Shown piece by piece: positions 29,656 through 61,700 of a stretch of 64,000 nucleotides of DNA (position 1 is the stretch's first letter; every line of letters starts with the position of its first letter). The stretch covers positions 2,060,391 to 2,124,390 of the forward strand of contig CAJINV010000004.1 of assembly GCA_905178155.1 (NCBI GenBank). The letters run 5' to 3'. Below the pieces are notes generated by a model. The model saw nothing but the letters and a program-made list of their open reading frames with translations, did no database searches and was not told the origin of the DNA. This DNA comes from Amoebophrya sp. A120. Lineage: Eukaryota > Protista > Dinoflagellata. The translations under genes and the position numbers were made by a program.

Positions 29656-29674
29656 GTGTGTGTGTGTGTGTGTG
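29656..29674. repeat. (GT)n microsatellite
   Basis: gtgtgtgtgtgtgtgtgtg. Confidence 0.85.
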
Positions 29675-30139
29675 TTTCTTCGTCAACGTCCTTATGTGTG
29701 CACCCATGTGAGACTAGCGCTACCGGGGGGCTCTTCCTGTCCCCCCGGGTCCTAATGTGTTTTGATTTGAAAAAGGGGTAGTATCCGTTCTCAAACAAAT
29801 GGAAGATTGCACCAATAAACTCAAACACTTCGAAAATAGATATCTGAAATAGATTGGCACCCTCTTCATTGAAGAGCTCCTCCTCCATTTCGCCCACCTC
29901 TGTTTTGAACCTGCGCTCCTTCTGCGATCCCTGTAGTCGTGGTGAGCAACAGATTTGGAAATTTTGATAGAGGTGACGATCCTCACAAACGCTATGGGCT
30001 TTTACCAATTGCGAACTCCAGCACTACGCTATTTTGGGTCCACAAACAAGCCTGACATCGCTCCATTCAAAAATGCACATCTATCCTCTTTTCTTCTTCA
30101 TCGTTTTCTCATCGTGCTGTTTGAATTCTGATTAGAGCG

Positions 30140-37579: not shown

Positions 37580-40500
37580 AACAAAGATCAGATCATGATC
37601 CGAGCCATCGCCCAACCCTCCTTCTGGTTTGCTCCTCCGACGCACCACGCAGGAGCCCCGCGCACCGAGCTGCGATTTGTCGTCCACGACGTCCCCAGGA
37701 AGACCGCGGTAGTATCAGCTGATCATGACCCATTCTTTCCTCTGTGGATCGTACTTCAGCTGTTTTCCGTCGTTATTTGGGAGGTGCGACTCCTCCGGTA
37801 TCGTGAGTAAAAACGTACCCACACCAGAGTTGTAATGCAGATTTGCAAAGACAGGAAGACTGGTAATGCGCATCCCCATGAGAGCCATTTCCAGTCGTGT
37901 TTTGGAATTTGTGATGCTGTGAACAGGATGAGCAGATGAATCTGTGACGCGGCTGCACTTGCTAACCTGCACTACACTGCAGAGCGCAACTTGTCATGCG
38001 TGACTCACAAAACTCCTAGGTTTGTGTTGCAAAATCCCCATCTCGACTCTGGTGTGGGGACATTTTTACTCAGGATATCCGGGTACAGTTGACTCACCGT
38101 TTTGTGCACGCTCCGCATTAACGAGGTCAGGGTGGACGTGAGCGGGCGGTCTGTCGTGTCGTGATATCGTAAAATATTAAATGCAGGAACAACGGTACAA
38201 AGCTGATCCAGTTCAGCAACGCGAAAATCAACATGCGCCAACATCATGCAGGACGCGCTATGAACTACGATGCACGAGTCTCTTTACGCATTATGCATTA
38301 CAAAATCCACTCAACTGTACATTCTCCTTTCGGTCCCGCGAGCGGGCGGTCGTCATCTTCCCCGACACCGGACAGATCTTCTTCAATCTGAAAGTTCGCC
38401 TCCTCCTCGTCGGATGAACTTTCGGCGAGCTCCTCTGACAGCGCGCCCTGGTGGAAATTTCATTCAATTTTTTGCTATTATAACATCGCCTTTAGTATTT
38501 TGTTCTTTGTTTTTTCCAGCAACAAACCTGTTGATTTTGATGTGACCCGGCTACTTTTGGTGAGCCAGCTAAAAATCCTATCTTCCATTATATCAACAGA
38601 AGATAGAAGTAAGATGCATCGGAGAAAAAAATACGTCCAGATTGTGCGACAGGAGTCGGACGATTTCGTGGTAGCCGAGCCGAGAGTATCAACTGCAAAT
38701 ATGTCTGGGTCTGGAAGGGTCATGCTGCTTTTGCATGACGCAGAAGGTCTGGCATAGAAGCTCTAGCATCACAGGTTTCGAGAAGCTTCCGCAATGCCGA
38801 ATTCGCATGGAAAATGCCCCATTTTGGTGACAGAAAGTGCGCAGCTTTTGCTGCCTGTGCATGAGAGATTTTTCTGCGTTGTGAAGTTCGCATCACAAGT
38901 TTGCATTCTTCCAGACCCAGACATATTTGCATTTGATAGAGAGGCAACCTGCATGGGCGTGAGCCCGTCTTCGTTGACCAGGTGCGCGAGTATCAGAATG
39001 AAAAATCCCCCCTCCCCGTATCAAAACGAAGTTTCTGATGCTGGATTTGCGTACACAAATTAGATTTGTCTTGCTGGCGAGGACTGCAGGCCCATACTAA
39101 GCCTGAGTAGGCAGGCTTTGGCCTAGGCGCTTAGCATGACAGACGTCTACGCTGTCGGTGCAACAGCATGACAAACCCCCTGTAGAATGCGGCCGAGCCT
39201 GTGGAGCTGCCTTCATGCAACACAGAGACGATTTGTGGTCACAAATCAGCAACACAAATTCTCAGAAAAATGCCTTGTCAATATGGGGAGGGAAGATTTT
39301 TCCTTTTGATAGCGAGGGAGGTGTCGCAGCTGAAATAAATCAAACACGCCACTGCGTCCACCTGTCCCAGCCCGCAGGCCTCGTGGAGCACGCTGGGCAG
39401 CGCGCCCGCGGGTTTCACCGCGTTCCAATCGGCGCCCGCGTCAAGCAGCGACTGCACGCAGGGAGAGTAGCCGTAGCGGCAGGCGTAGTGCAGCGGCGTG
39501 GCCCCCTCGCCGTCGCGGACATTGACGTTCGCATGGGAAAACACCAGCAATTCCACGGCTTGGTTGTAGCCTCCCGCCACCGCGAAGTGCAGGGCCGCGC
39601 GCTGGTAGGTGAGGTCCACCAAATCCAGCGCATCGCGGCAGAAGTGGCAGTAGAGCTGCAGATACGCAATATTTCCCTCCAAGGCCGCGTTGAACACCGT
39701 TGCGGTCTGCCGGGGATCCTGCCACAGACTCAGACCGAGCTTTTCGTTGCGCCAAAAGGACTGCGGATCTTGGCTGGTTGATGTTGATGTATTACCCGGA
39801 GTTGTAGAACTGCTGGAGGCAGCCACTGTTTGCGCTTGGTGCTGCAAAATTTCGCCCGTCGGGGAGACAAGTTCCCAGCGGCCGAGCACGTCTTCGAGCG
39901 GTATTACACAGAACAAAAAAGCTTTTATGTAAAACGCAAGACTGATTAATACACAAAAAAATCACTCTGGCATGCTTTAGCCAGCACTTGAGTAGAGATC
40001 TTCTTTTTGTGAATTCATTCTATGCCTTATAATTACCCGCTAGTTTGTTTCTGTGTGATAAGTTCGTCCGGCTGCTCCCACACCGACTCCCCGCGCTCCG
40101 GGTGGTGAAAGAACATGGCCCCCTGGTTGTCGTGTGTGACCGTCCATCCTTTCCACTCCGGCTGGCTAGGGTAGCTTTGGTGGACAGTGTGGCCGCCACC
40201 GTGCTGTTGCTGGTCCGGGACGTCGGCAAGCAGGGGCTGATCTGCCGAATTCGTGCCCCCTCCGCTCTGCCTTCGGTTCTTTTGCACCACGGCGGCGAAG
40301 TAATCCTGTCCCTGCGCCGCCCAGTTCGCGCTTGGGTGCGCGGGGAGGGCAGAGTCGGAATTGTCGGCAGCAGGGCCGCCGGATTGGTGCGTGTTGACGT
40401 TACTTCCTCTAGTATACGTTGCGTTTTCGTACGCCGCGCCAGAACCTGGTCGTGCCGAACCGGCGGCTGAGCTGGAACTACTGCCCCCGTGCTGCTGCAG

Positions 40501-43500
40501 CTGCTGTGGGGGCATGTTGTAGCTCATATTACCTCCTCCAGGGTGCTTTTGATTTTCGTGCTGCTGGTGGCTAGTTTGTTGGTAGCCAGAGTTCACTGTG
40601 CTGTCGTGCTGCTGCCCGTGCTGCCCGTGCTGCTGGTAGCTGCCCGGAGGCTGTTGCATCGTCGCTCCGGCACCTCCAGCCGCCGGTTGACCACCACCAA
40701 AAGTGGTCGTGCTTTGGTTTTGATGCCCAAGTAGAACCCCCGATGTGCTGCCCCCGCCCGGAGGTGCTCCTGCCTCCTGTGGCGCGGTACCATTAGGTGC
40801 GGGCGTTATACCAGACGGGCCACTACCACCAAACCCCGAGTACATGTAACTAGACCCTCCTTGCGCCGGCGGGGATAGTACGCCTACACCGAGGTGCTGC
40901 TGCTCCTGCGGACCGGTGCGACGAGGGTTGGGCGGCAAGCCCACGTTCGCGGGCACGCCTGCGTGTTGGTGCAGTGCTGCAGAAGGCCCGGTGGAGGACG
41001 ACGACGGAGTGGAGCCTGCAGATTCTCGTCCTGCCGCAGCAGGCCGTTTGTTCCCCTCTTTGTCGTCGAAGAAACGCCGCGGGCCTCCTTCCACCACAGC
41101 GTTGCCAACCTTCGGTGTGAAAACTCCGTTTGAAGAGGACGTTGTGGCTGCAGCTACACCGCCTCCCCCGGGCGGTCGGGGCGGCGGCGTGAAGTCATTC
41201 ATGCTCTTTGCACTACTAGAAGTAGTTCCAGCAGCACTTGCAGTTGTCACTGGTCCCTCCACCAGCCGCACCGGCTTCTCCGGACTTACCCGCCCGGCCG
41301 GGTCGACCACCACCGCACTGTCGAAGGCAGCAATGGGGCTCTGGCCGTCCAGCACACTGCTTTTCTTCGCGTGCAGCTTGTCGACGCTCGGGGGACTTGC
41401 GCGGCTGTCTCGGTGCGAAGAACCCGTGAGCATGGAAGAAGTGTCCTGGTGGTCCTTTGTATCAACTGTAAAAAACGTCCCCACGACTACTTGAGGGTCA
41501 AGATGGGATTTTTTTTTTGCGTACACAAATCACACAGCTTTGGGGGCTGTCGCGCATGAGAAGTCTGGGCTCGTCGTAGTTGTGCCATCCGATGTTCAGC
41601 CATGATAGTGCAGCCCAATTAATATGCGAAGTCGGTTCATCCTGATTCGACCCTGACAAAAAACTCCCAGGTAGCAGTTCGAAACTGCCCGTCATGTGGT
41701 ACAACTAGCGCATGACAAACATTTTCAGCATTGCAGAATTACACGACGCATGTGGGGACCACGTCGCTTTTTTACCAGGAAATACTGCGGCGAGTGGAGT
41801 GTGCTGGTGTCGGGAGAGGAGTTATCAAAATGAAAATAAATCCCCCCTCCCCATATCAAAATGGAAATTTCTGATGCTGATTTCTGTACACAAGTCCGAC
41901 TTTTCTTGCAGTACGGCACTCCTGCCAGATCCGCAGCCTGGGTGGGAGCGCTCAGGTCTAGTTGTTCAGCATTGCAAACGGCTGCCCTCTAGGACCAACA
42001 GCATGCCAAATCGCTTCACAATTGGGCGGATGCCTCTGCACTTGCCTTCTTGCATGACAAACCTGATTTGTGGCCACAAATCAGCAACACAAATTTTCGG
42101 AAACTTAGCTAAGAAATATGGGGAGGGGGGATTTTTCCTCTCAATAGGAGTCTTGACCGAACCGGGGCACGCGGCTGGTCTGCTGCACACTTTCCAGCGT
42201 ACCGAACGCCTCCTGCGGATTGAAGGAGCCGCGCCGCGGTTTGTCCCCTGGGCCTCCGCTGGCGAAGGAGTCCGGCGAACTGCAGGACGGGGAGCTCGGA
42301 ACGACATCAGTGCCCCGCCCACGATTTGCGGCTCCGATTCCATAATTCGACGAGGTGTTGTCGTCAACATTTGATGTTTTCCCGTGTCGTTTCTGGACAT
42401 CACGACTCGGAGGTTCTTGCTGCTTCACGCGGTTCATCTGGATGGGCCCTGTTGAAACAACTGCATGATCCGGGTTTGATACATTTGGTGTAGTGCCATT
42501 TTTGTTGTACTTGTTTTGCAGGTCCGCCAATTCCGTATCCAGCTCCTCGTCGAACACGTCGCTTAAGCCGTCCTCCGTGTCTTCGTCCTCGTCGCGCTTG
42601 AATTCCGCTAATAATTTCCCCGCGTGCGCCAGACGCGCCAGTTCCTCCTCGCGAAACTTTTGGAAGTCGCGCATCGGTATCAACTGGAAATAGGTCTGGG
42701 TCTGGGGAAAACTTGTAATGCTATTGCTAGCTTAGGAGTAATATTAAGCGCCCTGCAATTGTGCACTGCCAAGCTGCATGCTGACACGTTTTTGTGTGAG
42801 GAATATGCCTTTATTGGCAGCGTGCACGACGAACTTCGTTTTTGCATCACGGGTGAGGGGGCCTGCATTTCGTCGTGGCGAGGCACTACAGAGCTGAGAG
42901 TCATGCCGAAGAAATCCTGTACAAATCTTGCAATCTTCCAGACCCAGCAGACACAATATTTACGAATTGGTAATCGCGGCGGTTGTCGGTGTGGTGGGCG
43001 AGGCGGCGCCCGAGAGCACGCGGCCACGGTGCAGCACGCGCGGAGTGCTGTGGACGCTGGAAGCGTTGGAACGCGGCGTCACCATGACATCCTGCTGTGC
43101 AGCAGTTTCTTCCTTGGCAGAAGATTTTTTACTTTCTGCTTTTTTACTATTCATACCATTTCCAGCGGTTGCAGGACCGGCCGGGCCACTCTCCTTGGAA
43201 GAGCTCTTCTGGTCGAACAACTGGCGAATTTTCGAGACGCGCGTGCGCTGCTCGGAAGTATAATTGCTCGGCACGATCGGATATTAAATGCAAATATGTC
43301 TGGGTCTGGAAATTTGTGATGCTGAATGGCGACGAGTGACTGCACCTGTAAGAGCAGTGTAGCATGACAAATGTTTCAGACACTTTCTCATCCTTAGTGC
43401 GCATTACAAACTGCGCTTTTTCATGACGAAATTGCGGCACATTTGTTGCTCTTATGCAATACAGATTTTTCTGGAATCCTGGACACGCAATACAAGTTGC

Positions 43501-45320
43501 ACTTTTCCAGACCCAGACATATTTGCAATTCATATCGGATCCGCCAACTGACCCTCGTCCTCGTCATCCGAGGCCATTTGAAAGTGCTCGATCACCGGTT
43601 CGACGGTCGTGTGTTTATTTTCCACGCTATCGTTCGTCGTGCCCGTGACCGGTGGCACAAAAAATGTGCTGCTCCCACTGCTCGCTGGGAGGTCTGGCGG
43701 CTTGAGCTTTTGCGCCATCGTTGCCGGCGCAGCAGCTCCGGAGTTGTTGATAATATCGTAGTTCAAAAATATTTGCTCGCCCCCTTCCTTGATTTCTGCG
43801 AGTTTTCGCAGCCGGTCGCGTTCCTGCTGCGCCCGCTGGAACATGGACAATGGGGGCTCCGCGGAGGTGGAGGCTCCGCTCTTCAGCACGTTGTGGCGGC
43901 TACCGGAAAGGGAGCGGTTTAGGTAGCTCCCGGACGTGTTGGAGAAGCTCATGGAGGAGGACAGTGGGGAGCTGCTTTCCGTGATCGGTTCGCCGTTTCG
44001 GTTTCGTCTGCGCTTGTGCTTTCGCTTCGCGGAGGGGCTGGGCGTGGGCGGCGGCAGCGCCAGAGTGCTTGCGCTCGCCGCATTCGCTTTGTGGTTGGGC
44101 GTCGGGGGAGGGAGGATCATAGCAGAAGTAGTGGTTGCACCAGAAGAACTTTGAGGTTGCACCAGCCCGGGTGCCGCCACGGGAGTTGCGTAGTTCCCAC
44201 GGCTGCTCGAGCTCGTCGTTGCGCCAGCCGCGCTCCCCGTATGTTTCCCTCCTCCAATCGGCGGCGACATCCGGACCAGGTTCTCGAGCGTGACACTTAT
44301 TTTGCCATTATCCGCCAACGACGCAGACTTGGGGCTTGGTGGCGAAGCGGTGGAGCGATAGGGTTGTACTACTACACCAGAAGATTGCTGTTCGTGCGGA
44401 GCAGGAGGTCGGGAGTCAGAATTGATTTTCACTTCATGACTATCCTTCCCGACGTCCGAAAAGCCCCGCTGCAACTCCGGCGGCGGCTTGCGCCCCCCGC
44501 CCGGCGACCCCGGAGGGGACGATGGCGACCCCCGCGGCTTCGTGCTGTTCTGCTCCGGGCTCGACTTCGGATCGAGAAACCTCGCTCCGTCGCTTTCGGG
44601 GGACAGCATCTGCTGGTCGGACGGTGAGGATCGTGCAGGAGCTGCAGCCTTTGTTCCAGAAATCTTCGCAACCATTTCATCCGCGACAGCACCACCAGGC
44701 GTTTCCTTGTTGCGCGTCGGGGAAAATAAATCACCGTACACGCTCCGGGCCACGGCGGCGGTAGTCGTCGTAGCGACTGGAGGAGCTGGTGTTTTGTTGT
44801 TCACAGCAGCTGTTATAGCGGAACCTGTCGCGGCCGTGCTGCTGCTGGGCGTTCTGGTTTTTCCAACTCCAACAGGGTCGTTGCCGTCCGCGACCAGTAC
44901 CACCTTTTCATCCGGTGCGCCGGCTTTCACCGTCGCCGCCTTCGCCGTGCTCTCGGCCTGCACGAAAATGTCCTTGAAATCCGGTCTATGCAGTTCTCAG
45001 GCGTTCTTACGCTCTCATTTGTATATCGTACACGGTTCTTTATCATTGTCGTACAGAACCACTATGTATAATCACGCTGGTGCACACGCTCAAGCTTTTC
45101 TACATGGCAAGTTCCCGGCACGCTAAAAAAACAGCATTATCCGCACCGAGTCTGTAATGCAAGACGCTCAAAGTCACCCGTTTAGCTGTTGCTAGTCAGT
45201 CTTGCATCACAAATTTTTCACCCAACAGCAGTTGAGAGTGCAATGCTTGAGAACGCCATATGCCCCGAAGCTCGCGTCGAGCACGTCGTGCTCCGATCCG
45301 GGCGGTGAGCTCGTCGACAT
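37580..45320 (-). CDS. Large low-complexity protein with WW domain and ankyrin repeats; 9 TIR-element introns plus canonical introns
   Basis: WW GWTVTHDNQGAMFFHHPERGESVWEQP; ankyrins AALHFAV, GATPLHYAC, GLTPMQVASRLGYHEIVRLL (assembled across two elements); 3' end approximate. Confidence 0.78.
37799..38077. mobile_element. Family B intronic TIR element (reverse complement of 25812)
   Basis: TSD TCCGG; junction LYPE-ESHL. Confidence 0.93.
38687..38938. mobile_element. Family A intronic TIR element
   Basis: TSD GAGAG; junction VAS-RLGY. Confidence 0.93.
38991..39311. mobile_element. Family C intronic TIR element
   Basis: TIR TATCA...AAAAATCCCCCCTCCCC; TSD GCGAG; junction SLA-HLVN. Confidence 0.9.
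39902..40060. mobile_element. Short decayed intronic element (family I)
   Basis: TATTACACAGAACAAA...TTTGTTTCTGTGTGATA; TSD 2/5; junction PDEL-EDVLG. Confidence 0.7.
41460..41784. mobile_element. Decayed family B-like intronic element
   Basis: Left end TATCAACTGTAAAAAACGTCCCCAC; TSD CTTTG/CTGCG; junction SPQ-DHQD. Confidence 0.65.
41823..42146. mobile_element. Family C intronic TIR element
   Basis: TSD GGAGT; junction QDS-SPDT. Confidence 0.9.
42678..42972. mobile_element. Decayed family A intronic element
   Basis: TSD ATCGG/ATCGC; junction TAAM-RDFQ. Confidence 0.82.
43282..43534. mobile_element. Family A intronic TIR element
   Basis: TSD TCGGA; junction ADPI-VPSN. Confidence 0.92.
44987..45260. 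mobile_element. Heavily decayed family E intronic element
   Basis: Ends TATGCAGTTCTCAGGCGTT / AATGCTTGAGAACGCCATA; TSD 2/5; junction SFGA-DFKD. Confidence 0.6.
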
Positions 45321-46316: not shown

Positions 46317-48715
46317 CGTATCCGCCATTTTCTTCTGCGCAAACGAGACTTGGTCCAGCAACTCCTGTTTATGGATTGCAAAAGTGTCTGGGTCTGGAAG
46401 AATGCAAGATTTGTCATGCATATTTCTCATGGCCCATGATGCCTGTGATGCTTGACCTAGCATCGCAGACTTTTAGAGGTCTTCCTGATGCACCTTTTGC
46501 ATGAGAAATGCCCTGTCCGTGTAGCACAAACTGTGCGTGTGCCCCTCTTGCTGGTCACGCAATACAAATTTTCTTAGAGTCCAAAAACAGCATGACAAGT
46601 TGCAATCGTCCAGACATCCAGGGATATTTGCATTTGATACTGTTTCTGCCGCAACAAGTCCTTTTTCATCTTTTCGATCTCCAACCGCCGGTCTAGGTTG
46701 CGTGTCAAATGTAAAAATGTCGGGGTCTCGAAGAGTAATGCTGTTTTTGCATGACACAGAAGGTCCGGCATGGAAGCTCTAGCATCACAGGTTTCGAGAC
46801 GCTTCCGCGATGCCGAATGTCGTGCATGACAGATGTCGCCCCATTTTGGTGACAGAAAGCGGGCAGCTTTTGCTACCTATGCATGAGAGATTTTTCTGTG
46901 TTCTGAAATGCGCATCACAAGTTTGTCTTCTTCCTGACCCAGACATATTTGCAATCCATATTGCGTGACTCCTCCTGCTCCGTTTTCTCGCGCGCGAGCT
47001 GATCGATTCGATGTCGTGGGTAGGAAGAAAAAAGATAGAAAAAATTGAAGACCTTTTTTACAAATAATCACTTTGCTGCATAAATAAATTCTGCGGATTT
47101 AAAACATCAAACATTTCGATGTCTGTGTACAACTCCTCGCACTGATCGAATAGAAAAACACGAAATTTTCAAACCTACCTTCTCTTTCTTCAATTGCCGA
47201 TCTAGTGCCACCCGTTCCGCGTTGACCCGCGCGCGCTCCTTTATGACCCGCTCAGACGTTACAATATCTCAACTGTTACAATAGAGTCTGGATTTTGTGA
47301 TGGAAGAAGTGCATGATCTAGCCAAATCGCACAGGATTGCGCATGACAAGTTCTGGAGTGCCAACCCGCACTAGAATCTCGCGAAACCTGTAATGCGAAA
47401 AGCGCAATACTGGGTACGCTCCTCATGCTCTTCATGCAAGGCAAATTCCAAACTCTACTGTGACGTTTGAGATTGTAACACCTGAACAGGTTATATCCTC
47501 CGCGTCCAGTTTTTCGCGCTCCTTGAGCTCCTGCCGGTAGTTCGCGTGGTCCCGGTTGTACAGATAGCTATCTTCTATCGCCTTCTTGTCGGCCTCCCGC
47601 TCCTGCCGGCGACGCTCCTTCTTGAACGCCTGATAATCCCGGGATTCCAGCAGGTCCCGTTTCCTCGCGTCCTCCCGCTTCTGGTCCATCAGTTGCTTCA
47701 ACGCGCGCTCTATCCACAGAAGGCAAATCGGTGTCTGGACTGTTCTGGAACATAATTTTTGCAACACGTGAAGTGCTCATCGTAATCTCCTGCGTCATCA
47801 TCCCATATATAACCTCTGTTAGTTGCAAGCTCAGGAATTTTTCATTGAAGCGCTCCTTTTTCCTCGTCATGCAAAAGCGCGACTTCTCACAAAAAATGAC
47901 TTATCATGCACGACTCCCGATGTATAGTGCAGCAGTCGACTACACGACTTTGTCCCTGATGTACTACTTATCACCATGATCAAAAATTTACTATAAATTC
48001 CATTTCCAGTCCCAGATCCATACTATTTGCGGTGCATACGTTCGTTTTCGGAACGCCACTGCCGCAGTTCCTCCAGCTCTTCTTGCTTGTGCTGTATGGC
48101 TTGCTCAGATGTTACAATCTCAAACGTAGTTCCAATAGAATCTGGATTTTGTCTTGCATGAACAGCATGAGTACCATACAGAGCCTTGGGCTTTTCGCAA
48201 TACAAATTTCGTCAGATTCTCATGGGGTTTGGTGCTCCGAAACTTGTCATGCGCGCTCCTGTGGGAGTAGGCCAGATGTTGCGCATTTTGCAAGACAAAT
48301 TGCAGACTCTATGGCAACGTTTGAGATTGTAACACCTAAGTGGGTTATATGCTGCTGGACCGTTTTTTTCTCCTGTCGCTTCAAGTCCCACCGGGCCTGA
48401 GAGGGAAATCAAATGGATGTTGTGTTTCCTTTTTGGGATTGTCCTTGTCACATTCTCCTTGTCTGAAGCGGATCTCGCATCAGCAGTACTTAATACCGCC
48501 GTCGAGGGAAATGAGTCGATGCATATTTAATGTTGGAGGTACTCGAAGTTACATTAGTTTTAGTCCCACATCTCGCAATAAATCATGTGTTAGCCTACAG
48601 ACAGCACCTTGGATTCCTGGCTCTTCAGCTCTCGCACCTCGCGCCGCATTTGCTCCAATTCGATTTCATAGTCAGGTAAACCGCCGAGCGCGATGCGCCG
48701 CGCCTCCGTCGACAT
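46317..48715 (-). CDS. Charged coiled-coil protein (E/R/K-rich); 3' end unresolved below 46317
   Basis: MSTEARRIALGGLPDYEIELEQMRRE start; exons join in frame across 5 TIR elements and GT-AG introns. Confidence 0.7.
46370..46639. mobile_element. Family A intronic TIR element
   Basis: TSD CTGTT; junction RQKQ-ELLD. Confidence 0.88.
46703..46960. mobile_element. Family A intronic TIR element
   Basis: TSD TTGCG; junction EESRN-LDRR. Confidence 0.88.
47242..47495. mobile_element. Family E intronic TIR element
   Basis: TIR TATRRCYYGCTCAGRYGTTACAATCTCAA; TSD TCCTT/TCCTC; junction DAEE-RARV. Confidence 0.88.
47711..48038. mobile_element. Decayed family A intronic element
   Basis: TSD CGCTC/CGTTC; junction ENER-ALKQ. 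Confidence 0.75.
48095..48349. mobile_element. Family E intronic TIR element (reverse complement of 47242)
   Basis: TSD TGCTG; junction TVQH-KQEE. Confidence 0.9.
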
Positions 48716-48878
48716 CGTGCTGAAGTCTGACTTCGTCGCGCTGATTTTTTTCGGCAAAGTATGTACAGTTCACTGCGTATCCTACTAGCTTCTATTCCTC
48801 ATGCAACAGCATTCCTGTTCACCGAAAAGGAGTAGAACGGTGTTCCGCACAGGAAAAAAAAACGAAAAAGGAAAATTA

Positions 48879-51171
48879 TCACTTATACCTTCCAAAGCTC
48901 TGACCGGCCTCGCGCGCGGCGGGTTTCGGGCGGGGTTGGGCAGTGAGAGGACGTGTGTTCTTCAACAGCTGCGGAGACTTGTTCTGGGCGGCGGTGTTCG
49001 GCCGGGGGCGCGAGGACGAGGAAGCAGTAGAAACCGCTGATTTATTTGCGGACGCGGTGACAGCCCGATGGTTGTTCGCTCGCCAATCCGAGCCACTGGA
49101 GGGAGCGTAGGACGAACGCATCGTCGGTCCTGTAAGTATAGGAAAGAAGATTTTCTGCATTTTAATCATTCATGCCGAAGTCCTTGAGAAATAAGAGATT
49201 CCTCGGATATCTACCAAAAGAAGTCCTGACGTTCTTCCTCTCGTTCTTGCGAGCGCGAGTGGCATACATACAAGTTTATTCTGCAGCTCCAAAAAAACTG
49301 GAATTCAGAAGTACCAGCAGACACAGTCGCGCCAGGCCGCTCGATCACTCTTCGTATGGAATGGAAACAATCAGGTTGGATGTGGCCCGTGCAAAAGTCG
49401 AACCGTTTGTGCCGCACTTATGCCTATGTGCACATTGAATAAACGTAGTCGACGGAAATCATTTCAGTGCAGGTCTGTGCACAGTTCTATGATAGGAACC
49501 AGAACCTCAATATTTTTTTTGAAAATAAATCATGACAAATCAAGAAGGCACAGTGCCCCTGTGATGAAGACGAAGAAGTTTTCTCCTTTCATAGTCCTTG
49601 CGGAAGATGATGAGGACACCGCGGAGCCTGGCGGGCCTGGCTGTGGTCCACCGACCTGCGGCTTTCGTCGCAGTTGGAAGTAGCTGTACGCAGAGTGGAG
49701 CCATTCGTGCATCTGGTGGGCCACCGGGTGTGCCTGTGGCTCGGGGGATGAACCTGATCAACAGCTGCTCTTTGTTCACATCACTAATCTTCCGGAATTC
49801 ATCCATTAATCATGCTAATCTCGTCTGGAACTGAAATTTGCTCTGTTCAACATGCCCTCCGGATGATCACGATGAAAGTGATTGCATACTCGTATAATTA
49901 CCTGACTCCACGTAGTTTCTGACCCTTGAGATTGCCGCGTCGGGGATTCGTCCGCTGTCTACGGCGTAAGGAAACCTCCGCATGTATTGTGAGGAAAAAC
50001 CCCCCCTCCCCATATTGAAAAGGCATCCGTCGAAAAATTTGCGATGCAGATTTGTGGCCACAAATCATTTTTGTCTTGCAAGAAGGCAAGCGCTGAGGGA
50101 TGCGCCGCATCATGGATGCGATTTGTCATGCTAGTTGGCCAACAGGGCAGGCGTTTCCAATGCGAAACAGCTAGACCCTTGCGCACCTAAACAGCCTAAC
50201 AATCTGGCCGCGCTTCCTCACAGCAAGACAGACCTCATTTGTGTACGCAAGTCCAGCATCAGAAATTTCCTTTTGATATGGGGAGGGGGGATTTTTCATA
50301 TTGATAGCATGGCGTTGATGTAGTGCCCCGGCTTCCCCATCACCCGTCGGGCCTGGAAGTAATGAATTGCAATGAATTTTTAATACCCGGGACAAAGAAT
50401 ACTTATCTTCGTGGGGCTGCAACATGTCATATCTGGTCCAAGATACGGACAACATTCAAACTGCACACTTTTACTGCACCGAGCGAAACAGTTGACGATG
50501 TTCATGTTGTTGCCATGATCTTCAAGTTCAACGCTGATCATGATTATGCCCAAAAATCTACTCTCATTTGCAGTCGAGTTAATAGTACAGAATCCCAGTC
50601 CCGGCCGGAGACATCCACCGCCAGGGTGTTATCCACTTCCGTTACCAAGCTGAGCGCCGCTTCGCTTTTGTTGTGAGGAAAAATCCCCCTCCTCATATAG
50701 AGTGGGAAATTTGTGATGCTGCCTTTTCGTACACAAGTCCGGCTTGTATTGCTAGAAAGGCAAGAGACGCATTTGCGGCCGTGTTTGCAGGCAATTTGTC
50801 ATGCTGTTTCCCACTTCCAGTTGCCCCCTGTCATGCTGAAGATGCAAGGCTTTGTTCCCACGCCAGCAAGCACTACAGTCTGCATCTTTTCTTCTCTAGC
50901 ATGACAGCATGATTTGTGGTCACAAGTCAGCAGCACAAATTTCCAATTTGAGTATGGTTTGGGGGCATTTTTCATTTGGATAGCTCCCCTGTTCCACGGC
51001 TTTGGATACCACGGGCTGCTCCCGAAATTCCGCGATCTGCTTCACGGAAAGTTTTTCCAGGGGCGCGGAAAGGCCATCGTACGCGACTTTCCGCTGTTCC
51101 TTTAGCGCCGCTGCGAGGTCGCCGGGACTCCCAGACTGCAGCGGGCTCGAGCTCGCTGGGGCCACAACCAT
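48879..51171 (-). CDS. Multi-exon protein of unknown function
   Basis: ATG at 51171; exon ORFs separated by two family C elements and apparent GT-AG introns; exon structure only partly resolved. Confidence 0.55.
49985..50306. mobile_element. Family C intronic TIR element (reverse complement of 59695)
   Basis: TSD GCATG. Confidence 0.9.
50669..50982. mobile_element. Family C intronic element, decayed
   Basis: TSD GCTTT/GCTCC; junction EQGS-EAAL. Confidence 0.8.
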
Positions 51172-52207: not shown

Positions 52208-55200
52208 TTACAACTCGGTTTTCACCGGACTCGGTGTGCTGGTCATCGCTTCCACCTGCGAAATCTCCTCGGGCAGCCAGTCCAGTTTCACTTTTTTGCT
52301 CGTCTTCGCCACCAACCGCTCCCGGCAGCTCTTCCACACCTGCTCGGAGCACTTCGTTTTCTGCACGTCGGTATGCCTCACAAATGCCGATCTGGCCCTG
52401 GGAGAGGTGCCATTTGTGATGCTAACGAAGTAGATAAGCAGACAAAAAAATCTGTCTTGCCTGAGCAACTGTTATAGGTGCCCACTTTCTCTTAGCAAGC
52501 AAGACAAGTCGAGCTTCTACTCCTACGGTTGCGGGGTTGGACTTCTAGGCATTATTTGAGGCGCTTACTTCGCAACGCCTGCAAAAATGCTTTGCATACA
52601 TTCCCGCTCATGCTCATCTATCTGTGGCAAAAGATGCATGACAAGCAAGTGCACTCTTCTGACCCGGCAGACACATTTGCAGTTGATAGTCGATCAACTT
52701 CGAGATTTTGCCCTTGGAGTATGAGAGTGCACAACGCCCCCTCCCCCTCATTCGTCATGCGAAACCCCAAATATCCAAGCACTTCCCATTGGCACCATTT
52801 GCATGACAGATACCGGAAGCCCAAACAGTACTACACTAGAGCTGCATGAATTTGTCATGCTCAGCCTCCGCGTGTAGTGGTGTTTGTACTGCTGTTCATG
52901 CAATACAAATGAGGAGGAGGGGGAGTTGTGCACTCTCATATGGAGTTCAGGATTTTCGCACACGTGGAGAGCACAGACAGAACCGGCTGCGGCACGTCCG
53001 ATATCCACTGCAAAAGTGATGTCGATTCTAATTGCAACGTTGCATGACAAATCTCGTCGTTTCTATACTGCCATATCAGCAAGACCAGCGTCATGTCGAC
53101 TCTTTTTGAAGATAAAATTTGTGATGCAAGTTATATTACTAAGCGGCACTTTTGCATTGCATATCGGAGTCCTGGACTTGACGGACCTGCTGGTCAAGCC
53201 TGTGTTTCATTGATGAAGAGGTTGTTGATGTAGGTGCTGCAGATATGTCATTGTGCTGCGATGGATCTGTGAACAAATTATGCATGACACTGTGCATAGA
53301 AAGATCATCATCTCGATCTCGAAGATGAAAGGAACTTCTGTATTATACCACTGGTAGCTCTTTTCGTTGAGGCGATCGAATTTGGTCTCCTGGGCCTTGA
53401 TTTTTTCCACCGCGTCTTCGGGCTCGTAGCAGAAGGCCAGGTTGTATCAAATGCAGAAATGTCTGGGTCTGGAAAGTTGTGATGCATGTTAGTGAATAGG
53501 AGACACATTGCAATGCGCCGCCAAGCATGACAGATTTTTCCGTGGCTTTGTGTTGCGTATTCCGCATGAGAAACTGCGTTTTTGCATGACAAACCAGAGG
53601 ACCTCTTGCTGGCCACGCAATACAGGGCTCAGTGTCATGCCAGACTAGCATGACAAATCTCGCACTCTTCCAGACCCAGACATATTTGCAATCCATAGGT
53701 TGAACTGCCGATGCTGCGGGTTCCAGACGGTGTTGCGCACGATGGCCTCCACGACCGGAGTATCAAATGTAAAAGTGTCTGGGTCTGGAAGAGTCATGCT
53801 GTTTTTGCATGACACAGAAGGTCTGGCATGGAAGCTCTAGCATCACAGGTCTCGAAAAGCGTTCGCAATGCCGAATCCGCATGACAAATCCCTGACTTTG
53901 GTGACAGAAAGTGGGCAACTTTTGCTGCCTATGCATGAGAGATTTTTCTGTGTTCTGAAATGCGCATCACAAGTTGCAATCTTCCAGACCCAGACATTTT
54001 TACATTTGATACGGGGGCTGGTAGAGCAATTGCTCGTAGTAGGAAATTATCACTTGGAAAACTGTCGGGGTCAGCGAAGCAGTTCTTGTGTTACCAGTCT
54101 GTGAAAAATGATCATGGGTAGTCGTACACAGACTGCAATAGGCAGCAGAGCATGACGAGTCTTTGCGCTGCTAGTTTATGTGTTGTAGATTCCGCATGGC
54201 AGACTGCGTCTTTCTTGTAACATTCAAGGGGAAGATGGGGATCTACTTTTATTTTCGCGCCTATAATGCATGATCACAGAGCACCAGCGTCAAGTCAGGT
54301 CAGACAGGCACGACAAATCCATTGCAAGCTTCCAGAGGACCTCGACATTATATATGCAATGCATAGAAATGGAATCTGCGAGCGAAAGGCTGACGCGAAA
54401 CCACCCGGGGGGAACAAAAATGATGTCGCCGGGTTCCTGGTTATGACAGTCCACAACTACGCCCCCTCATTTGTATGGTCGATGTTGAACAGCAATACAA
54501 AAACACCAGCACGACGACACGTGAAGCCTGTGCATGACAAGAACTTCATCCGGATCGAGTGTAGTTGTACTGTTTCTCATGCATATATAGTGACACAAGG
54601 GTAGTACTACAACTACACCTGGACCTGGAACTGTCACTGTGGTGTCTTTCGCATGAGAAATGAGAAATGAGAACGAAGTGAGTAGTTGTGCACTCTCATA
54701 CTGGTTCACCTCTATGTACTTCTTCAGCCCAAATTCTTCCTTCAACTCCGGGAGCTTTTCTTCGAAAAACATGTACCTGCAAAATTTTTAAGTAACCGCC
54801 TATGCTGTATGACACTTAGTCGATGACAGTGTCTTTCACTCATGCAGTCGTCACTGCTGCACCACAAATCTTTATAACCACATTGATTCCTATGAATGAA
54901 ATAAGTACGCGCTGGTCTGCTGGAATTCCAGGGCCTCGCGAGCCTTCTCTGCGACCTGCTGGACTTCGTCTTCGGTGACCAAGAGCCAGCGCCGGAAGCC
55001 ATGCAGCAGGACGTCGTAAAACGGCAATCCGTTCTCAGCGTGCAGCTTGTCCCCACTCCCGGACGGCCCAAAGACAAAGTACCGGAAGTCTCCAGCCGCC
55101 TGCTGCTTCAAAAAGTCGCTGCCTGGAGAAGATAAAGATTGATAAATGGTTGCAAAAATAATAAATCGTGAGAATAAATTCTTGGTCGTCGTGTGTCTAT

Positions 55201-57406
55201 CGTGTTGTGATTTTCAGCGAGGTTCATTTACTTCTACGCGGGATCAAAAAAAACTTCTATCTGCTCTACGTCGATCTTATACTTTTCTTTTCAACAAGAA
55301 AAACCTGTCGTACTACTACCGAATAATTCCAAAACCGTCCCCCGGGAGTTGTGATGAATCAGTATTCAAGAAACTGCTCACATGAATCTTCAGAGAGTAC
55401 TACTAACTGAGTACCTTCCTTCTTGCCCAAAATTTTTTGCAGCTCGGAGGCAATAACCGCTGAGGAATTTCCCCCGTCAGGCGTGAAGATCCTCTTCGCC
55501 GCACGCTCCCAGTCGTGAAAAACGTTGTCGACGATGGGCGTTTTGCATCAACTTCAAATAAGCTTACTTCTGGATGGTCTGGCAAATTGGAAGGTTTGTC
55601 ATGGTCGTGCTTAATCCTCTGACAACATGATTCATTCTGAGCGCTGTGATGTTCAGGCATGGGCTCAAAATAAAGAAGCTCTGGCCCGTGCCATGCAAAG
55701 ACGTAGTCTGCCATCTGATGCGGAAAAAAAAATTACACGATAGTACAGTACACAATAAAGAAGTGCTGCATCACCACCTTTCATATAGAGTAGCGTCTAC
55801 ACGAAATGATCCCGAGACGACCGACCAGCCCGAAGAGGAATATTAAGTATTTGCAATTGCATATTTTGGACTTGGGCAGCTTGGTTCGCAACGCGTCCAG
55901 TTCCCCCTCCTTTTCCACCAACTTTCGCGCGCTCAGCGTGTGCTCGCAGTGCTCGGTTGCCTGGCCAGGGATCTTCGGCGCGGCCGGTGAGCCCAGGTAG
56001 CAGTTGGTCAGGTACCGCGAGAAGGGGATCAGGTTCGGCTCCGTGAAATAAATGCGGTTGCCGACCACCTTCTGCCGTGGCTGGTCGGGCGGAAAGTATT
56101 CCAGCACCGTGTTTTTTTCCAGATACTCGTTGGTGGAAAATTGCTCCGCGGTGAACTGCTCGCGCGCTTCCGCAAAGTTCTCGAACAGCGAGGCACCGTA
56201 TGAGCGTGCACAACTCCCGCTCCCCTTCATTTGTAATGCAAAAACGCAGTTCCAGCCACTGCCTCACATCGCTACCTTGCATGACAGACTTGGGAAAAAT
56301 CCAAACAGTACGTATAGTCCGCACGCATATTTGTCATGCAAAAACTACATCTCTGACCTTGTCTCTATTGCTGTTCTTGCCTTCAAATGAGGGGGAGGGG
56401 GGGTTGTGCACTCGGATACACCGTTCTTCACCAGAAAAGGCTTTTGGAACTCCAGTTTCTTGCCGTGCTTTTTCTCGTAGTCCTCCACACTAATCTCCGT
56501 CATCTTGTTCTGCTTCTTGCCCGGCTTGGCGCGCAGCTTCTTCAGCTCCTTCAGCTTGTACTTGCCTGTACTTATTTTTCAAATGTTCAGAAGAAATGGC
56601 ACTAGAATGCTGTGCTGTCCTATGTTCATCTATCCACAGTGCAATGACTTGGTGCTCTCATCATCTCAGCAGTGGAAGACGGAGCGGCAAAATTAACTAA
56701 AGAAACAAGTAGTGGACGAAGCATACAAAAACGCGATATCCATTTTTTCTTTGTTTATCGGAACAACAAATTGCATATCGGAAGATACAAGAATGAAAAG
56801 TACCGACAGTGAACGAGACCGCCTTTTCTTTTTTCACGGTTTCTTTCACCGTTATCCTGAGTAAAAACATCCCCACACCAGAGTCAAGACGGGGATTTTG
56901 CAACACAAGCCTAGAACTTTTGGGGGTCACGCATCACAAGTTGCAGTCCGTAGTGTAGTGCAGGTTCGCAAGGCCAGCTGCATCAGAAATCCATCTGCTT
57001 ATCCTGTTTACAGCATTACAAATTCCAAAACACGACTAAAAATGCCTCTCCTGGCGATGCGCATTGCAAGTGTTCCTGTCGCTGTCATTGGAAATCTGCA
57101 TGACAACTCTGGTGTGGGGACGTTTTTACTCAGGATAACCGTGTTTGCCGCTTCGTTTAGCTTTCTTAGCTGCTCGAGCATGTTGTCCAAAAAAAGGGTC
57201 AAGGACGAGTGCATTTTTTCCTTCTTCGCAAATTCTCCGAGTTGGACGGCTTGCTCTAAAATTTCCGTGGTGTTTTCCTTTTTCCCGACTGTCAATTTCG
57301 CGTGGATGTTGATGCTGTTCTGCGCTTCTACCGCACCGGGGAGCTGCTGGACCAGCGAAGTTGCTGACAGCAAGGTCGCGGTCAGGAAAAATCCTTTCGA
57401 AAACAT
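52208..57406 (-). CDS. Signal-peptide-bearing JmjC-domain protein (JMJD8-like); 10 TIR-element introns plus canonical introns
   Basis: MFSKGFFLTATLLSATS; KPFLVKNG; FVFGPSGSGDKLHAE...LLHGFRRWLL; QEPGDIIFVPPGWFRV. Confidence 0.8.
52372..52688. mobile_element. Decayed family A intronic element
   Basis: TSD GTCGG/GTCGA; junction KLID-VQKT. Confidence 0.72.
52720..52940. mobile_element. Family D intronic TIR element
   Basis: TIR TATGAGAGTGCACAACKCCCCCTCC; TSD TGGAG; junction LNSK-GKIS. Confidence 0.92.
53002..53163. mobile_element. Family H short intronic element
   Basis: TATCCACTGCAAAAGTG...CACTTTTGCATTGCATA; TSD TCCGA/TCGGA; junction QDSD-VPQP. Confidence 0.82.
53445..53697. mobile_element. 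Family A intronic TIR element
   Basis: TSD GGTTG; junction QFNL-AFCY. Confidence 0.92.
53761..54011. mobile_element. Family A intronic TIR element
   Basis: TSD CGGAG/CGGGG; junction YQPP-VVEA. Confidence 0.92.
54048..54365. mobile_element. Decayed family A intronic element
   Basis: TSD GAAAT perfect; junction DSIS-YYEQ. Confidence 0.75.
54442..54700. mobile_element. Decayed family D intronic element
   Basis: TSD CTGGT; junction EVNQ-EPGD restores the JmjC Q.PGD motif. Confidence 0.85.
55546..55863. mobile_element. Decayed family A intronic element
   Basis: TSD TTTTG; junction PKSK-TPIV. Confidence 0.7.
56199..56418. mobile_element. Family D intronic TIR element
   Basis: TSD CACCG; junction VKNG-ASLF. 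Confidence 0.92.
56853..57137. mobile_element. Family B intronic TIR element
   Basis: TSD ACCGT; junction ANTV-KETV. Confidence 0.93.
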
Positions 57407-58739
57407 CTTGTAGTTTGCGGCTCGTGCAGATCTTGAACTACTTTTCATCTTCCACAGGTTTTGGTTTTGCTGGTCTTTCTCCTGCATCATGACCGGGGTC
57501 AGTACTTGTTTTGCCTCTACTTCCACTTCGCCAGTTGTACTGATAAAACTTCTTCGCAGGCCAGTGTCAGCAACTACATGTTGTCCACAACTTCGGAGGT
57601 GACAACATTGTTCAAGCTGATCCTCATCCTGGTCGGGCCAGAACGTCGCATGATCTACTTGCGGTTCTTCATCTTGCACCAGCTCGTCCCCGGCACAGGG
57701 AGGTTGTTGCCTCCAGGAGCTCATCCACATGGTTGTCGTTGCAATATCCTCGTCCCTCAAGAAGTCCTCGCTGCGGCGCGAAAATCCCGGGCGGGACAAC
57801 TACGTTTTTTGATGCGGCTCGCACAACGTTTTTTGATGTCTTTTTGCCGTCTCAGATAATCAATAACGTCTGGTCGTGCTCGCTAGGATGTAAATTTAGT
57901 TATATTGCTTTACTTTGATATTGGTATAGTGATGCGAAAAACGAACTTGATGTGTCGTGCAAATTAGAATGTTAAATTATCAAAGTCTTCATAGTCAAGG
58001 AGGGTAAGAGGTTCTACTTCTGTCGCTAAAAGGGTCGCTGAGCGAAAAACGTTCAGGACCATGCGATATCAAAAACAGAAAAGAGATCGTAGAAAAGGAA
58101 GAACCGAAAATGAAATCTGATCAGGGAACCTTGCAAGAACTACATCAGCGTAACTACATTGCACAATGACCACCTTTTCTTGTCCACTGTCGTACTATCG
58201 ACAAATAGAAATAGTACTATGCCTCGATCCAATTTAAAAATGCAGAGCCAAGGTGCAGCTTCTCGAGAAGAAAGCGTGGTGAAGAATTGCGGCCATTCTA
58301 CTTCTCGCGGCCACGAGATGCAAACCGGGTCCCGGAAAAACGGGGAAGGCGAACACTGGAGTTGCAAAGGCAAAACGCTTTGTCTTGAGATTATTTTTTT
58401 ATTCTTTGGTTCTGAATCTGTACTTCTACTTACTCGTAGTTTTTCTGCCGATTGACTTTTACTCCCAGTTCCTTGCCTCTCTACAAGGAAGAGGCAAAAA
58501 TGTCCCGCAGTTGTGCCAAGCATCAAAGACGAAGATCAGAGATGCGGTTTTGTGTTAAGTAATTTCTTCGAAATCACACGTCGCACATCTGACTGGTGCG
58601 AGAGATCGTGGTCGTTTCTTTATTGCACTGCGAGACACATCTTCACCACCCTGCACTAAATCATCTCCCTTCGCTGGTGCTGGCTCCTCAGGAGGTCGTA
58701 AAAGCTGCTGTAGGACCGATCATCTACAGTAAAACTCAC

Positions 58740-61700
58740 GCACGGCGGTGAGGCCGATCATCTACAACTGCTGCGAAACCTCTCAGAGGCGTCCCTTCGG
58801 CATGAGTACCAGCTGCACCACAATCACATATCAAATGTAAAAATGTCTGGGTCTGGAAACTTGTGATGCTGGGTGGCGTCTTATGATGAGGCCACAAGTG
58901 CTGGCTCAGCATGACAAGTTTCTGAGCTTCTAGGTGTTGCCTATTCTGCATGACAAACTGCGTTTCTGCATCACAGAAAAGTGGGGCTCTTGGGTAACGT
59001 GCATGACAGATTTAACAGTCATGCCAGACAAGCATGACAAACATGCATTCTTCCAGACCCAGACATTTTTACATTTGATATCACAACGCAGAGAATGATT
59101 CCGTACGTTTTCTGGTTCCGGTTGGATTTCTGCGCTTGCGCGATATCCCACGAAAAAACTGTTTCACTGTGATGATTTTGCAAGATCTGCATCACAAGTT
59201 TGTTACACATGCTACTAAAAATTTCTCATGCGCACTTCCCAAGGGAAAACACGCTGGAAAATCCAATGCCTTGCATGTGTAGCAAGACAAATAGTTTTGT
59301 GTTATATTTTCTGCATCACAGGTTCACCGTAAAACAGTTTTTTCTCAGGATACGCGAGTACGGTTGAGTAGTACTGCACTACCTGCTGAAACATCGGCGA
59401 ACGGCTCGCGAACGAAGCCGCGGCACCAGCGGTTCCGTCTTGCGTTCCCTGAAGGTCGTTTTGCTGCTCATCGCCTGCTGTAGCTCGTGCATCATCTTCG
59501 TATCCCCCAGCCATGGTCAAATCGTAGTCGTAGGCCTCTTCCTCGGCGGACCCCTCTTCTTTCGAAGCTGCCGGAACAAGCTTCTTCTGTTTATTCAGAT
59601 TTAATACTTGTTTCCGCTGCCTCACCGGTAGGGAGTCCTGATACTTCTCCTCCTCCGAGACGGATGAGGACATTTTGCCCGAGGAAGAGGAAGATATCGA
59701 AAGGAAAAAACCCCCCTCCCCATATCAAAACGGAATTTCTGATGCTGGATTTGTGTAGACAAATCAGCTTTGTATTGCTGGAAGGCATTGCGGCCAGATT
59801 CCCAGCCTAGGTGGAGGCGTTGGGCTCTAGTTGTTCAGCATGGCAAACGGCTCCGCTTTAGGCCCAACAGCATGACAAATCGCCTCCATAATGGGGCGGA
59901 AGCATCTGCCCTTGTCTTCTTGCAACATAAATGTGATTTGTAACCTCAAATCAGCAACACAAATTTTCGGAAACATGCCTTTTCAATATGGGGAGGGGGG
60001 ATTTTTCTTTACGATAGAAGAGGATGAGGCTTTGTTGCTTTGCGACTCGGGTTCTTTCGAAGACGAGGGATTGGACCCGCGGTGAAACCCCGGCGACAGA
60101 AAAGCGGCGACGAGATTCAGCGGACCTTGGCGCTTCCACCGGGCGAGCCGCTCGCTCGCGGCCGCGGAAAACGAGGAAGTCGAAGACGACCCCGATGACG
60201 TGGAGCGGCCGGGGGGTCGCCGTCCTGCTCTCGCCGAGGACGAGACGGACCGGGTGTCGTCCTGCTCGAAGTAGGCCTCTGGTGCCATGCCTTCTACATC
60301 ATCTTGTTCCTGGTAGTAGGAAAACAACGGGCGTTCTACTTGGTACGCCGGCGGAGCAGTCTCGCCCTCCCGCTCGCGCCGCATCAGCGCCCGCGCCTCC
60401 TGGTCGTCCTGCCGGCGCTGCTTTAACCAGTCCGGCACCACGGTCGCATTGGCCCCGCCGCCGTAGCTGGTTTCCAGAGCCGTCGCCACGCCGGCACCGT
60501 ACTGGCCGCGGGCCGCGTGCAGGAGATCGTCCAGCGACCGTCGCCGGGCAGCTTTGCGCGCCTCCTCGGCCCTGCGCCGCTCCTGCCGCTCGGCCCGCGT
60601 GTTGCGCCACACCACGGACAAGTGGACCGCGACGCCCGGCTTGTTGTCGTAATAGCCACTGTAGCCGTGGCATGATCCTGTGCAAAAGCGATATTATCGC
60701 ACTCGTAGCAATTCTTGCAATTTTTATGCATGACAAATCTTCTTTCTCACCACGACCCTACCCCATCTTTCAAGTTGGAACAATTTGTAATGCAATCTGT
60801 ACTAGTGCGATTTGTTTTATTTGCAATGCATAGGTTGCCGTGCAAATAATTATCCGCGGCGTTGTTGTAGCCGCTGGTGCTGGATCCGGCCAGGAAACCG
60901 CTTAAACTCGGCGTTGCGTTCCCGGATGCTCCAGTAGTATTCTTAACTACCTCCCCGTCCGAGAGCACGCCCTCGTAGACTAGGGGCGCGGTCGACGTTG
61001 TGCCCCCATCCTGGTCCGCGAGGAGTGCTCGCTCCGCGTCGGAACCGCGACCGCTTCCCGCGCGGATCGTGGGCAGGTTACGGAACGACCCCTCGGACAA
61101 CAGCGCTTTGCTTGGTTGATTCACAGCGTCTGTCTTGCTTGTTTGAAAAGCCGGCGAGGATGAAGAAGCTGTGTGCTCTTCTATCCTGTGTAAAAACGCA
61201 CCCACGACCCCAGGGTTGTGTCATACAACAGTGCACCACTAAATATGTCTCTCATGCGCAGCCAAATGCATCTTCTTGGGAAGCGTTTCCTAGGGGAGTC
61301 CTGGAATTTGTCACGCTAAGTATAAAGTGATTTTAAATCACTAGAACTAGATAGAATTAAAGAGATCATTAATTTGTGATGTCGCGGCTGCACAACTAGC
61401 TGAGGATCGCATTTTTACACTACGATCCCAAAATTTTCATGCGCAACATGATATTTTCAAAAAAACCCTCTTCGATTTGTCTAGAAAAATTGCTATCTTG
61501 ACTCCGGGGTCGTGTGGAAATTAGTTTCCACAGCGGGTAGGATCGCCAACATCTTCTACTTCAGCAGCTACTGCTCCATCGCCCTCTTTCGCTGTCCGCG
61601 CAACCAAGAACTCGTTGCCGCTTATTTCCAACTCGGTCGTGGGAACCACAGCTGCGTCCGCTTCTAGAAAACCGCTCTCCAAAATGTTGGAGGACATCAT

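Follow-up and report, generated by a model that had tools for sequence, protein, structure and literature searches.

A conserved, regularly spaced internal motif shared by introner families of Amoebophrya sp. A120, most likely a DNA-level mobilisation code

The introner elements of the dinoflagellate Amoebophrya sp. A120, as described by Farhat et al. (2021; PMC7789003), are about 240–250 nt long (mean 240), form non-canonical introns in co-oriented genes, and have inverted repeats consisting of TAT, seven variable nt and at least three A, with direct repeats of 3–5 nt. Gozashti et al. (2025; PMC12130899) give A120 families of terminal inverted repeat (TIR) elements of 106, 149, 209, 234, 252–260, 278, 305 and 317–322 bp, among them fam38, annotated as ‘5-bp TSD, TA/TA Termini’ (TSD, target-site duplication) with integrase-like homology. 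We analysed 64,000 nt of this genome (assembly GCA_905178155.1, contig CAJINV010000004.1, positions 2,060,391–2,124,390; hereafter the window), in which genes lie mostly on the minus strand and are broken up by repeats of mostly 150–340 bp, non-coding TAT..ATA elements with a 5-bp TSD. The TAT(N7)AAA ends, short direct repeats and non-canonical splicing of the published introners are all found here, as are the element sizes of the second survey and the TSD and termini of fam38. At the same time, Farhat et al. treat the terminal repeats and define families by them, and Gozashti et al. assign diverse or unknown mechanisms, with no uniting internal motif in the 12 of their 14 supplement files that were searched, whereas the elements studied here share an internal motif and a 5-bp TSD in all families. 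The elements are already known; the shared motif and its spacing, for which we found no description, appear to be new.

CACTA/En-Spm transposons carry short direct and inverted motifs inside their TIRs, thought to be bound by a TnpA-type element protein that joins the ends (PMC4219821, PMC9921582). A motif reiterated subterminally in both orientations is present here too, but CACTA termini and a 3-bp TSD are replaced by TAT termini and a 5-bp TSD, which rules out CACTA membership; moreover, soybean CACTA subfamilies are separated by their motif, whereas here one motif is common to families with differing TIRs and its sites occupy the whole element in helical register. An integrase-type DDE enzyme is suggested by the TA termini together with the 5-bp TSD: IS3EU/GingerRoot elements share the TA..TA termini but usually have a TSD of 6 bp, and Ginger2 has a comparable TSD of 4–5 bp (PMC10045372), so that affiliation with these transposons is only a lead. 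Being short, non-coding and numerous, with TIRs, TSDs and empty sites, the elements also resemble miniature inverted-repeat transposable elements and other non-autonomous TIR transposons. Euglena has genome-wide non-GT-AG introns with pairing ends as well (PMC12501133), but their code is strand-specific and lies at the boundaries, while the motif here is internal, strand-indifferent and, in old copies, dispensable for splicing.

Searching for inverted TAY..RTA ends flanked by TSDs that match at no fewer than four of five positions yielded 406 elements, and removal of one weak candidate left 405 in 592 kb (30 in the window), mostly 109–340 bp long and falling into 14 multi-copy families and 26 singletons. 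Besides the window, the 592 kb comprise 528 kb of companion loci that do not overlap it, obtained by scanning metagenome contigs with the family-A TIR pattern, which gave at least 164 loci, of which nine overlapping or near-duplicate ones were dropped and four trimmed to leave the 528 kb; element copies in them are up to 95% identical to window copies. Because this selection over-represents family A, cross-family tests used one consensus per family. The families B and C of an earlier sequence-only reading are our F4 and F5, and its family A corresponds to the F0 and F1 subfamilies (F0a, F0c, F1a, F1b, F1c). When TSD lengths of 2–8 bp were allowed in a scan of the window, intact elements gave 5 bp; with a match of at least four of five required by the search, the duplication is exact in 343 of the 406 elements and matches at four positions in 63. 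At two points where locus L014 has an insertion, the corresponding part of L037 has none and carries a single copy of the target, indicating DNA insertion with a 5-bp duplication. These two loci differ in the presence or absence of several elements, and a 7-kb pair shared by L028 and L037 (89% identical) holds a fully identical element inside a near-identical tract. In the family-balanced TIR matrix TAT is universal (100%, as the search demanded) and A has a frequency of 0.68–0.90 at positions 11–15, with departures in F7, F8 and F11, leaving only positions 16–30 family-specific. The earlier description of the TIRs as unrelated was therefore overstated.

Inside these elements the trained matrix describes a motif of about 12 bp, WGCA[T/A][G/C/T]A[C/G]A[A/G][A/G]T, with GCA and A-C-A nearly invariant (1.7–2.1 bits per position), and the top 7-, 8- and 9-mer across the 14 family-consensus interiors are GCATGAC, GCATGACA and GCATGACAA. 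A leave-one-family-out matrix found three to seven sites per family, compared with 0.03–0.37 in shuffles, in 14 of 14 families, so the 9-mer proposed as common to the families does recur beyond chance, although its true length is closer to 12 bp. A site of at least 12 bits is present in 403 of 405 elements, and site density within elements is 16.4 per kb in the window and 15.1 per kb in the loci. Remaining DNA has 0.39–0.57 sites per kb (Markov-model expectation 0.05), most of the window’s 21 sites outside catalogued elements lying within worn elements; in hand-picked window compartments we counted one site in 14.7 kb of intergenic or untranslated region (UTR) DNA and one in 16.8 kb of exon (0.06–0.07 per kb), and three in the 4.0 kb of 20 canonical introns. 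Equal frequency outside the elements would have spoken against the motif grammar; the motif is instead near-absent there. Viral contigs gave no match to the TIR pattern and 53 motif-pair matches, none within an element having TIRs and a TSD (one spurious TA..TA pair lay off the match), which we take to be chance.

The sites are arranged in pairs. All the positions given in the sequence-only reading were right, both the family B reverse copies ending at 37838, 37869, 37917, 37950, 37999 and 38030 and the family C sites at 59745/59778, 59838/59870 and 59922/59954, with two degenerate copies among the former (GCATTACCA, GCGTCACAG) and three among the latter (GCATCAGAA, GCATGGCAA, GCAACATAA); five of the 12 differ from the motif by one or two bases. 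The family B element (37799..38077, TSD TCCGG) has six same-direction sites in three pairs, TTGTCATGC-type on the plus strand, starting at 37830, 37861, 37909, 37942, 37991 and 38022, and the family C element (59695..60016, TSD GAAGA) is listed with pairs 59737/59770 (−), 59838/59870 (+) and 59922/59954 (+). The offsets of about 80, 120, 173 and 204 said to be shared by two family A subfamilies also hold (F0c, 53761..54011, sites 53807, 53840, 53879, 53933 and 53964, all +; F1b, 58829..59080, TSD TCACA, sites 58861 (−) and 58909, 58948, 58968, 59001 and 59032 (+)). Across the family consensuses the proposed peak at 31–33 bp is present, with 22 direct pairs in 12 of 14 families against 2.45 expected (0 of 5000 randomisations), and the best 3-bp window in 2000 nulls did not exceed 13. 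Divergent pairs at 46–50 bp are enriched as well (11 vs 2.0 expected). The period of about 80 bp was confirmed in family B but not across families (78–86 bp, 12 vs 9.6, p=0.22). In F5 and F10 the spacers of the terminal pairs (window 59745–59765 and 59935–59953) contain a palindrome, GATTTGTG-NN-CACAAATC; spacers of other families often conceal a weak third site, reversed, about 16 bp from the first.

A statistic that scores how well all sites of an element fit a single face of the helix, inverted sites being given their own free offset, reached its maximum over 8–20 bp at 10.4 bp (0.48), compared with a mean of 0.234 and a maximum of 0.413 in 300 nulls in which the 31–33-bp pairs were kept rigid, and with a best of 0.47 in 60 nulls searched over 8–20 bp. 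Three sets of eight less related families gave one-face p values of 0.005–0.035. Outward-pointing sites cluster 32–33, 42–43 and 52–55 bp from the terminus and are phased to it, with R=0.48 for family consensuses (n=35) and R=0.55 for singletons (n=28). The minimal family consists of eight elements of 109–119 bp built as TIR, site, variable spacer, site and TIR, with a spacing of 32 bp in four, 35 bp in one and 39 bp in one, and one site worn in the remaining two.

Could shared descent account for all this? With motifs neutrally masked, spacers were related in 10 of 136 consensus pairs, six of them between top-level families (the related pairs include F5–F10, F6–F10, F7–F10, F0–F1 and F4–F6), which indicates that shared descent and module exchange contribute. 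Simple common ancestry, which interiors alignable from end to end in all families would have shown, thus applies in part, but the other 126 pairs lack clear spacer similarity while the motif is kept in all. In 13 alignments of at least 10 copies, mismatch is 0.052 in the motif core, 0.191 in the interior and 0.077 in TIR 16–30, a 3.6-fold lower rate of change in the core than in the bases next to it; the gap between core and interior persists at every divergence level (core/interior 0.16–0.54 in nearest-neighbour pairs). The core is kept about as strongly as the TIRs while the spacers diverge, and because core mismatch is so far below that of the interior, descent alone is insufficient. Copies shared by L028/L037 and by L014/L037 are essentially identical. 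F3 varies concertedly in its TIR while keeping its site map; left-right TIR covariation is small and mostly due to F3. In the family alignments of these non-coding elements and between L028 and L037, inserted lengths of +3 and +6 nt greatly outnumber those of +2, +4 and +5, which suggests a triplet-biased mutation process.

We consider it probable that the motif forms an array of sites on DNA for a single mobilising protein that the families have in common, predicted to be a transposase or its DNA-binding partner; in the best reading it works as subterminal repeats do in CACTA transposons. A shared protein that contacts one DNA face had been proposed from the spacing, and it is supported by the 10.4-bp phasing, the selection on the core, the near-absence of sites outside elements and the minimal TIR-pair-TIR family. 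Copies of the protein would load on one helical face and bend or bridge the 100–320 bp between the ends, bringing the TAT(N7)AAA termini into a DDE-type active site. One machine could in this way move all families, with TIR segment 16–30 free to drift; selection would be at work during the copying of a lineage and sites would decay after insertion, splicing continuing after site decay and probably guided by the ends.

Several observations weigh against this proposal. F8 and F11 are without a 31–33-bp pair and have only an alternating 46–49-bp pattern, family B drifts in phase, a period of 16.2–16.4 bp scores as well as 10.4 bp in the reduced sets, and two of the short elements depart from 32 bp (35 and 39 bp). 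Nor do pair spacers look especially rigid, as indels occur at 0.57 per 100 bp in 31–33 pairs vs 0.67 in other intervals. Independence among the families is incomplete, and the core has fewer private substitutions as well (0.017 vs 0.041), which leaves room for selection after insertion. The protein itself did not come to light: 48 + 48 open reading frames (ORFs) from long elements, cargo and intergenic DNA of the 592 kb gave no relevant Pfam match to a transposase or binding protein, the longest ORF in a long element is a low-complexity one of 238 aa, and no cognate autonomous element with a transposase was found in the 592 kb. These loci were chosen by the family-A TIR pattern and make up less than 1% of the genome size published for A120; Farhat et al. 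likewise report no transposase in A120 (PMC7789003). If the transposase itself binds the motif, a copy inside the TIR is expected, and the candidate at TIR position 4 is not significant (score −6.9, null maximum −6.8).

That published absence also speaks for a rival reading, in which all families have co-opted a host DNA-binding or architectural protein as transposition cofactor and every family has a separate, TIR-specific transposase. Family-specific TIR positions 16–30 are what separate transposases would produce, and phasing, strand indifference and constraint fit equally well. We nevertheless regard a host cofactor as unlikely, since the motif is at background in intergenic/UTR DNA (one site in 14.7 kb), so that no ordinary host use is apparent here, which favours an element protein. 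TAT ends and a 5-bp TSD common to all families, as well as the constant site map of F3 under a concertedly varying TIR, also argue against it.

Whether the motif instead licenses the non-canonical splicing, as an RNA-protein site or through paired RNA stems, can be judged from spliced copies. Contigs of run X3 skip both repeats and GT-AG introns and terminate in a poly(T) tail, and are therefore transcripts, although their automatic classification as RNA is only a guess; among 15 joints listed (41 found) six are canonical and nine non-canonical, each of the nine skipping exactly one TAT..ATA element plus 5 nt, that is, one TSD. Contig pieces of X4 and X5 added two further skipped introns, bringing the RNA-confirmed non-canonical introns to 11, while the DNA contigs of X1 and X2 contain the elements at 54442 and 56199, the latter skipped in X4 and X5. 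A strong site is present in 8 of the 11 and in none of seven RNA-confirmed canonical introns, motif copies pair with each other in six of seven folded consensuses, and the lower private mutation rate of the core could be read the same way. However, three of the 11 have no strong site (none of at least 12 bits in the first two named here), which shows that splicing can do without the motif: intron 47706–48038 (old F1-derived element 47711..48038, 333 nt skipped) and intron 55541–55863 (old F0/F1-derived element 55546..55863, skipped in RNA contigs) are recognisably derived from family A, and intron 49351–49594 (old TATG..CATA element 49355..49593, 244 nt skipped) is not assignable to a family.

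Orientation points the same way. With gene strand called by a codon model (187 called, 165 uncalled), 85 elements run with the gene and 87 against it, and motif sites are 357 sense and 359 antisense to the transcript; in 38 elements with sites on one strand only, 23 have the motif strand and 15 its complement. A reading-frame test on these elements was discarded as circular, the +5 junction having already entered the strand calls. Core mismatch is the same for sense and antisense (0.054 vs 0.052, p=0.81) and for the 5’ and 3’ halves (0.049 vs 0.058, p=0.13; both for 182/383 relaxed copies), unlike TIR 16–30, where conservation is a little higher at the transcript-5’ end (uncorrected p=0.02). 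Family B motifs are unable to pair mutually, and a 10.4-bp period is a signature of duplex DNA. The splicing licence, also raised in the sequence-only reading, is in our view improbable. Transcript TIR pairs showed no G.U over A.C bias (145 vs 123, p=0.2).

As for the splice position itself, worn TSDs at 49351–49594, 47706–48038 and 50664–50982 narrow it down, and the joints, taken together, fit a 5’ cut lying 1–2 nt before TAT and a 3’ cut 3–4 nt beyond ATA. Old copies at 46703–46960, 50669–50982, 55546–55863, 54100–54367 and 60672–60832 still resemble TAT(N7)AAA on the transcript-5’ side, with a 3’ end that is altered (TGT, CAT) or apparently replaced by an AG acceptor. TIR positions 1, 2, 11 and 13 show a matching trend of 5’-end retention (post hoc).

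It is quite improbable that the phased words merely position or bend chromatin (nucleosomes or DVNP-type packing) and, needing no dedicated reader, in that way favour copying or removal during transcription. The 10.4-bp phasing, a motif ending in an AAAT tract and a size of 149–154 bp for the smallest large families would suit such a role, but near-invariant GCA and A-C-A go far beyond what bending signals need, spacing of 78–86 bp is not enriched, and a 109-bp family exists. A functionless remnant of a single ancestral element that recombination and internal duplication have spread would explain the ten related spacer pairs and a cross-family spacer identity of 0.364 vs 0.299 shuffled, but is very improbable and already largely refuted by the mismatch of core versus interior. 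The 126 pairs that keep the motif without clear spacer similarity, and the three family-B spacers, mutually only 33–44% alike, also speak against it.

A bolder version of the shared-protein proposal, possible but doubtful, is that all A120-type introner families form one system, whose machine reads the phased internal word array and the TAT(N7)AAA ends rather than the TIR sequence. If so, the rest of the TIR would need only to be self-complementary and to serve RNA removal, a DNA code for mobility would be separate from an RNA stem for scarless splicing, and both the published family diversity and the missing family-specific transposases would be explained.

The same sites recur in the other elements of the window. 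After the family B element at 37799 follow family A (F0c) at 38687..38938 (TSD GAGAG; sites 38766, 38859, 38890), family C (F5) at 38991..39311 (TSD GCGAG; pairs 39033/39066 (−), 39134/39166 (+) and 39217/39249 (+)), a family C copy with worn TIR at 41823..42146, outside the automatic catalogue (GGAGT flanks; sites 41869 (−) and 42001, 42052 and 42084 (+)), and family A (F1c) at 43282..43534 (TSD TCGGA; five sites). Spliced elements with strong sites are F0a at 46370..46639 (TSD CTGTT; 275 nt skipped, including one TSD; five), an F0c-type element at 46703..46960 (TTGCG flanks, transcript-3’ end TGT; 263 nt; four), F11 at 47242..47495 (259 nt; two), F10 at 50669..50982 (319 nt; three) and an old F0-like element with worn TIRs at 52372..52688 (322 nt; four). 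A second F11 at 48095..48349 (TSD TGCTG; 260 nt skipped) has alternating sites 46–48 bp apart (48149 (−), 48197 (+), 48244 (−), 48290 (+)), and family C (F5) at 49985..50306 (TSD GCATG; 327 nt skipped) has five sites.

Further along lie F6 at 52720..52940 (TSD TGGAG; sites 52752 (−), 52801 (+), 52852 (−), 52900 (+)), a 162-bp element at 53002..53163 (sites 53042 (+), 53079 (+), 53119 (−)), F1a at 53445..53697 (TSD GGTTG; seven sites of at least 9 bits), a diverged F6-like element at 54442..54700 (TSD CTGGT; four weak sites), the F6-like element at 56199..56418 (TSD CACCG; three sites; RNA contigs skip it along with one TSD, DNA contigs retain it), family B (F4) at 56853..57137, oriented opposite to the copy at 37799 (five sites, +), and F3 at 59144..59352 (TSD CGCGA; sites 59189 (+), 59223 (−) and 59282/59313 (+)). 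Beyond the range first read, within 62613..63587, F9 (62613–62917), F6 (62999–63218) and F4 (63288–63587) all have sites. Upstream, within 7416..34706, the same sites occur in nine further catalogued elements starting at 7416, 11768, 13336, 15928, 24276, 25812, 32718, 33093 and 34444. A gene for ribosomal protein uS5 (rpS2) at 24060–26170 has two family-B insertions in its coding exons, so highly conserved genes tolerate elements too. Where matches to an rpS2 exon carry a species name, they come from dinoflagellates (77–79%); the best match of all reaches 93%.

Longer TAT..ATA elements with unrelated cargo retain site arrays near their ends. Two lie within 7416..34706 of the window (13691–14521 and 14726–15842) and two in companion loci (L032:632–1465, L023:505–1608); they have exact 5-bp TSDs and 550–850 bp of cargo without Pfam matches, and the published integrase-like homology of fam38 might likewise be captured cargo. 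Low-complexity GGCGCC and T/A runs between genes at window 16900–17700, also without a Pfam match, loosely resemble the L023 cargo, and an ORF at L020:2628–4577 encodes a C-5 cytosine DNA methylase domain.

The sequence-only reading knew of no description of this motif grammar, and neither the internal word nor its spacing is described in the literature searched, namely the text and supplement of Farhat et al., 12 of the 14 supplement files of Gozashti et al., reviews, and a preprint by Roy et al. whose searched text does not mention Amoebophrya (figures and theses were outside this scope); among the matches listed for the literal motif sequence in paper texts, all looked like primers. Taken together, the motif is real and under selection, and it most likely represents a DNA-level mobilisation code. 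For the spread of tens of thousands of introners in Amoebophrya, the sharing, conservation and helical phasing of the motif point to a single machinery behind all families. The motif supplies a bait for the mobilising protein and a profile with which autonomous partners could be sought, and the smallest family offers a minimal test substrate of 109 bp; the motif also separates mobility from splicing, directing work on splicing to the element ends.

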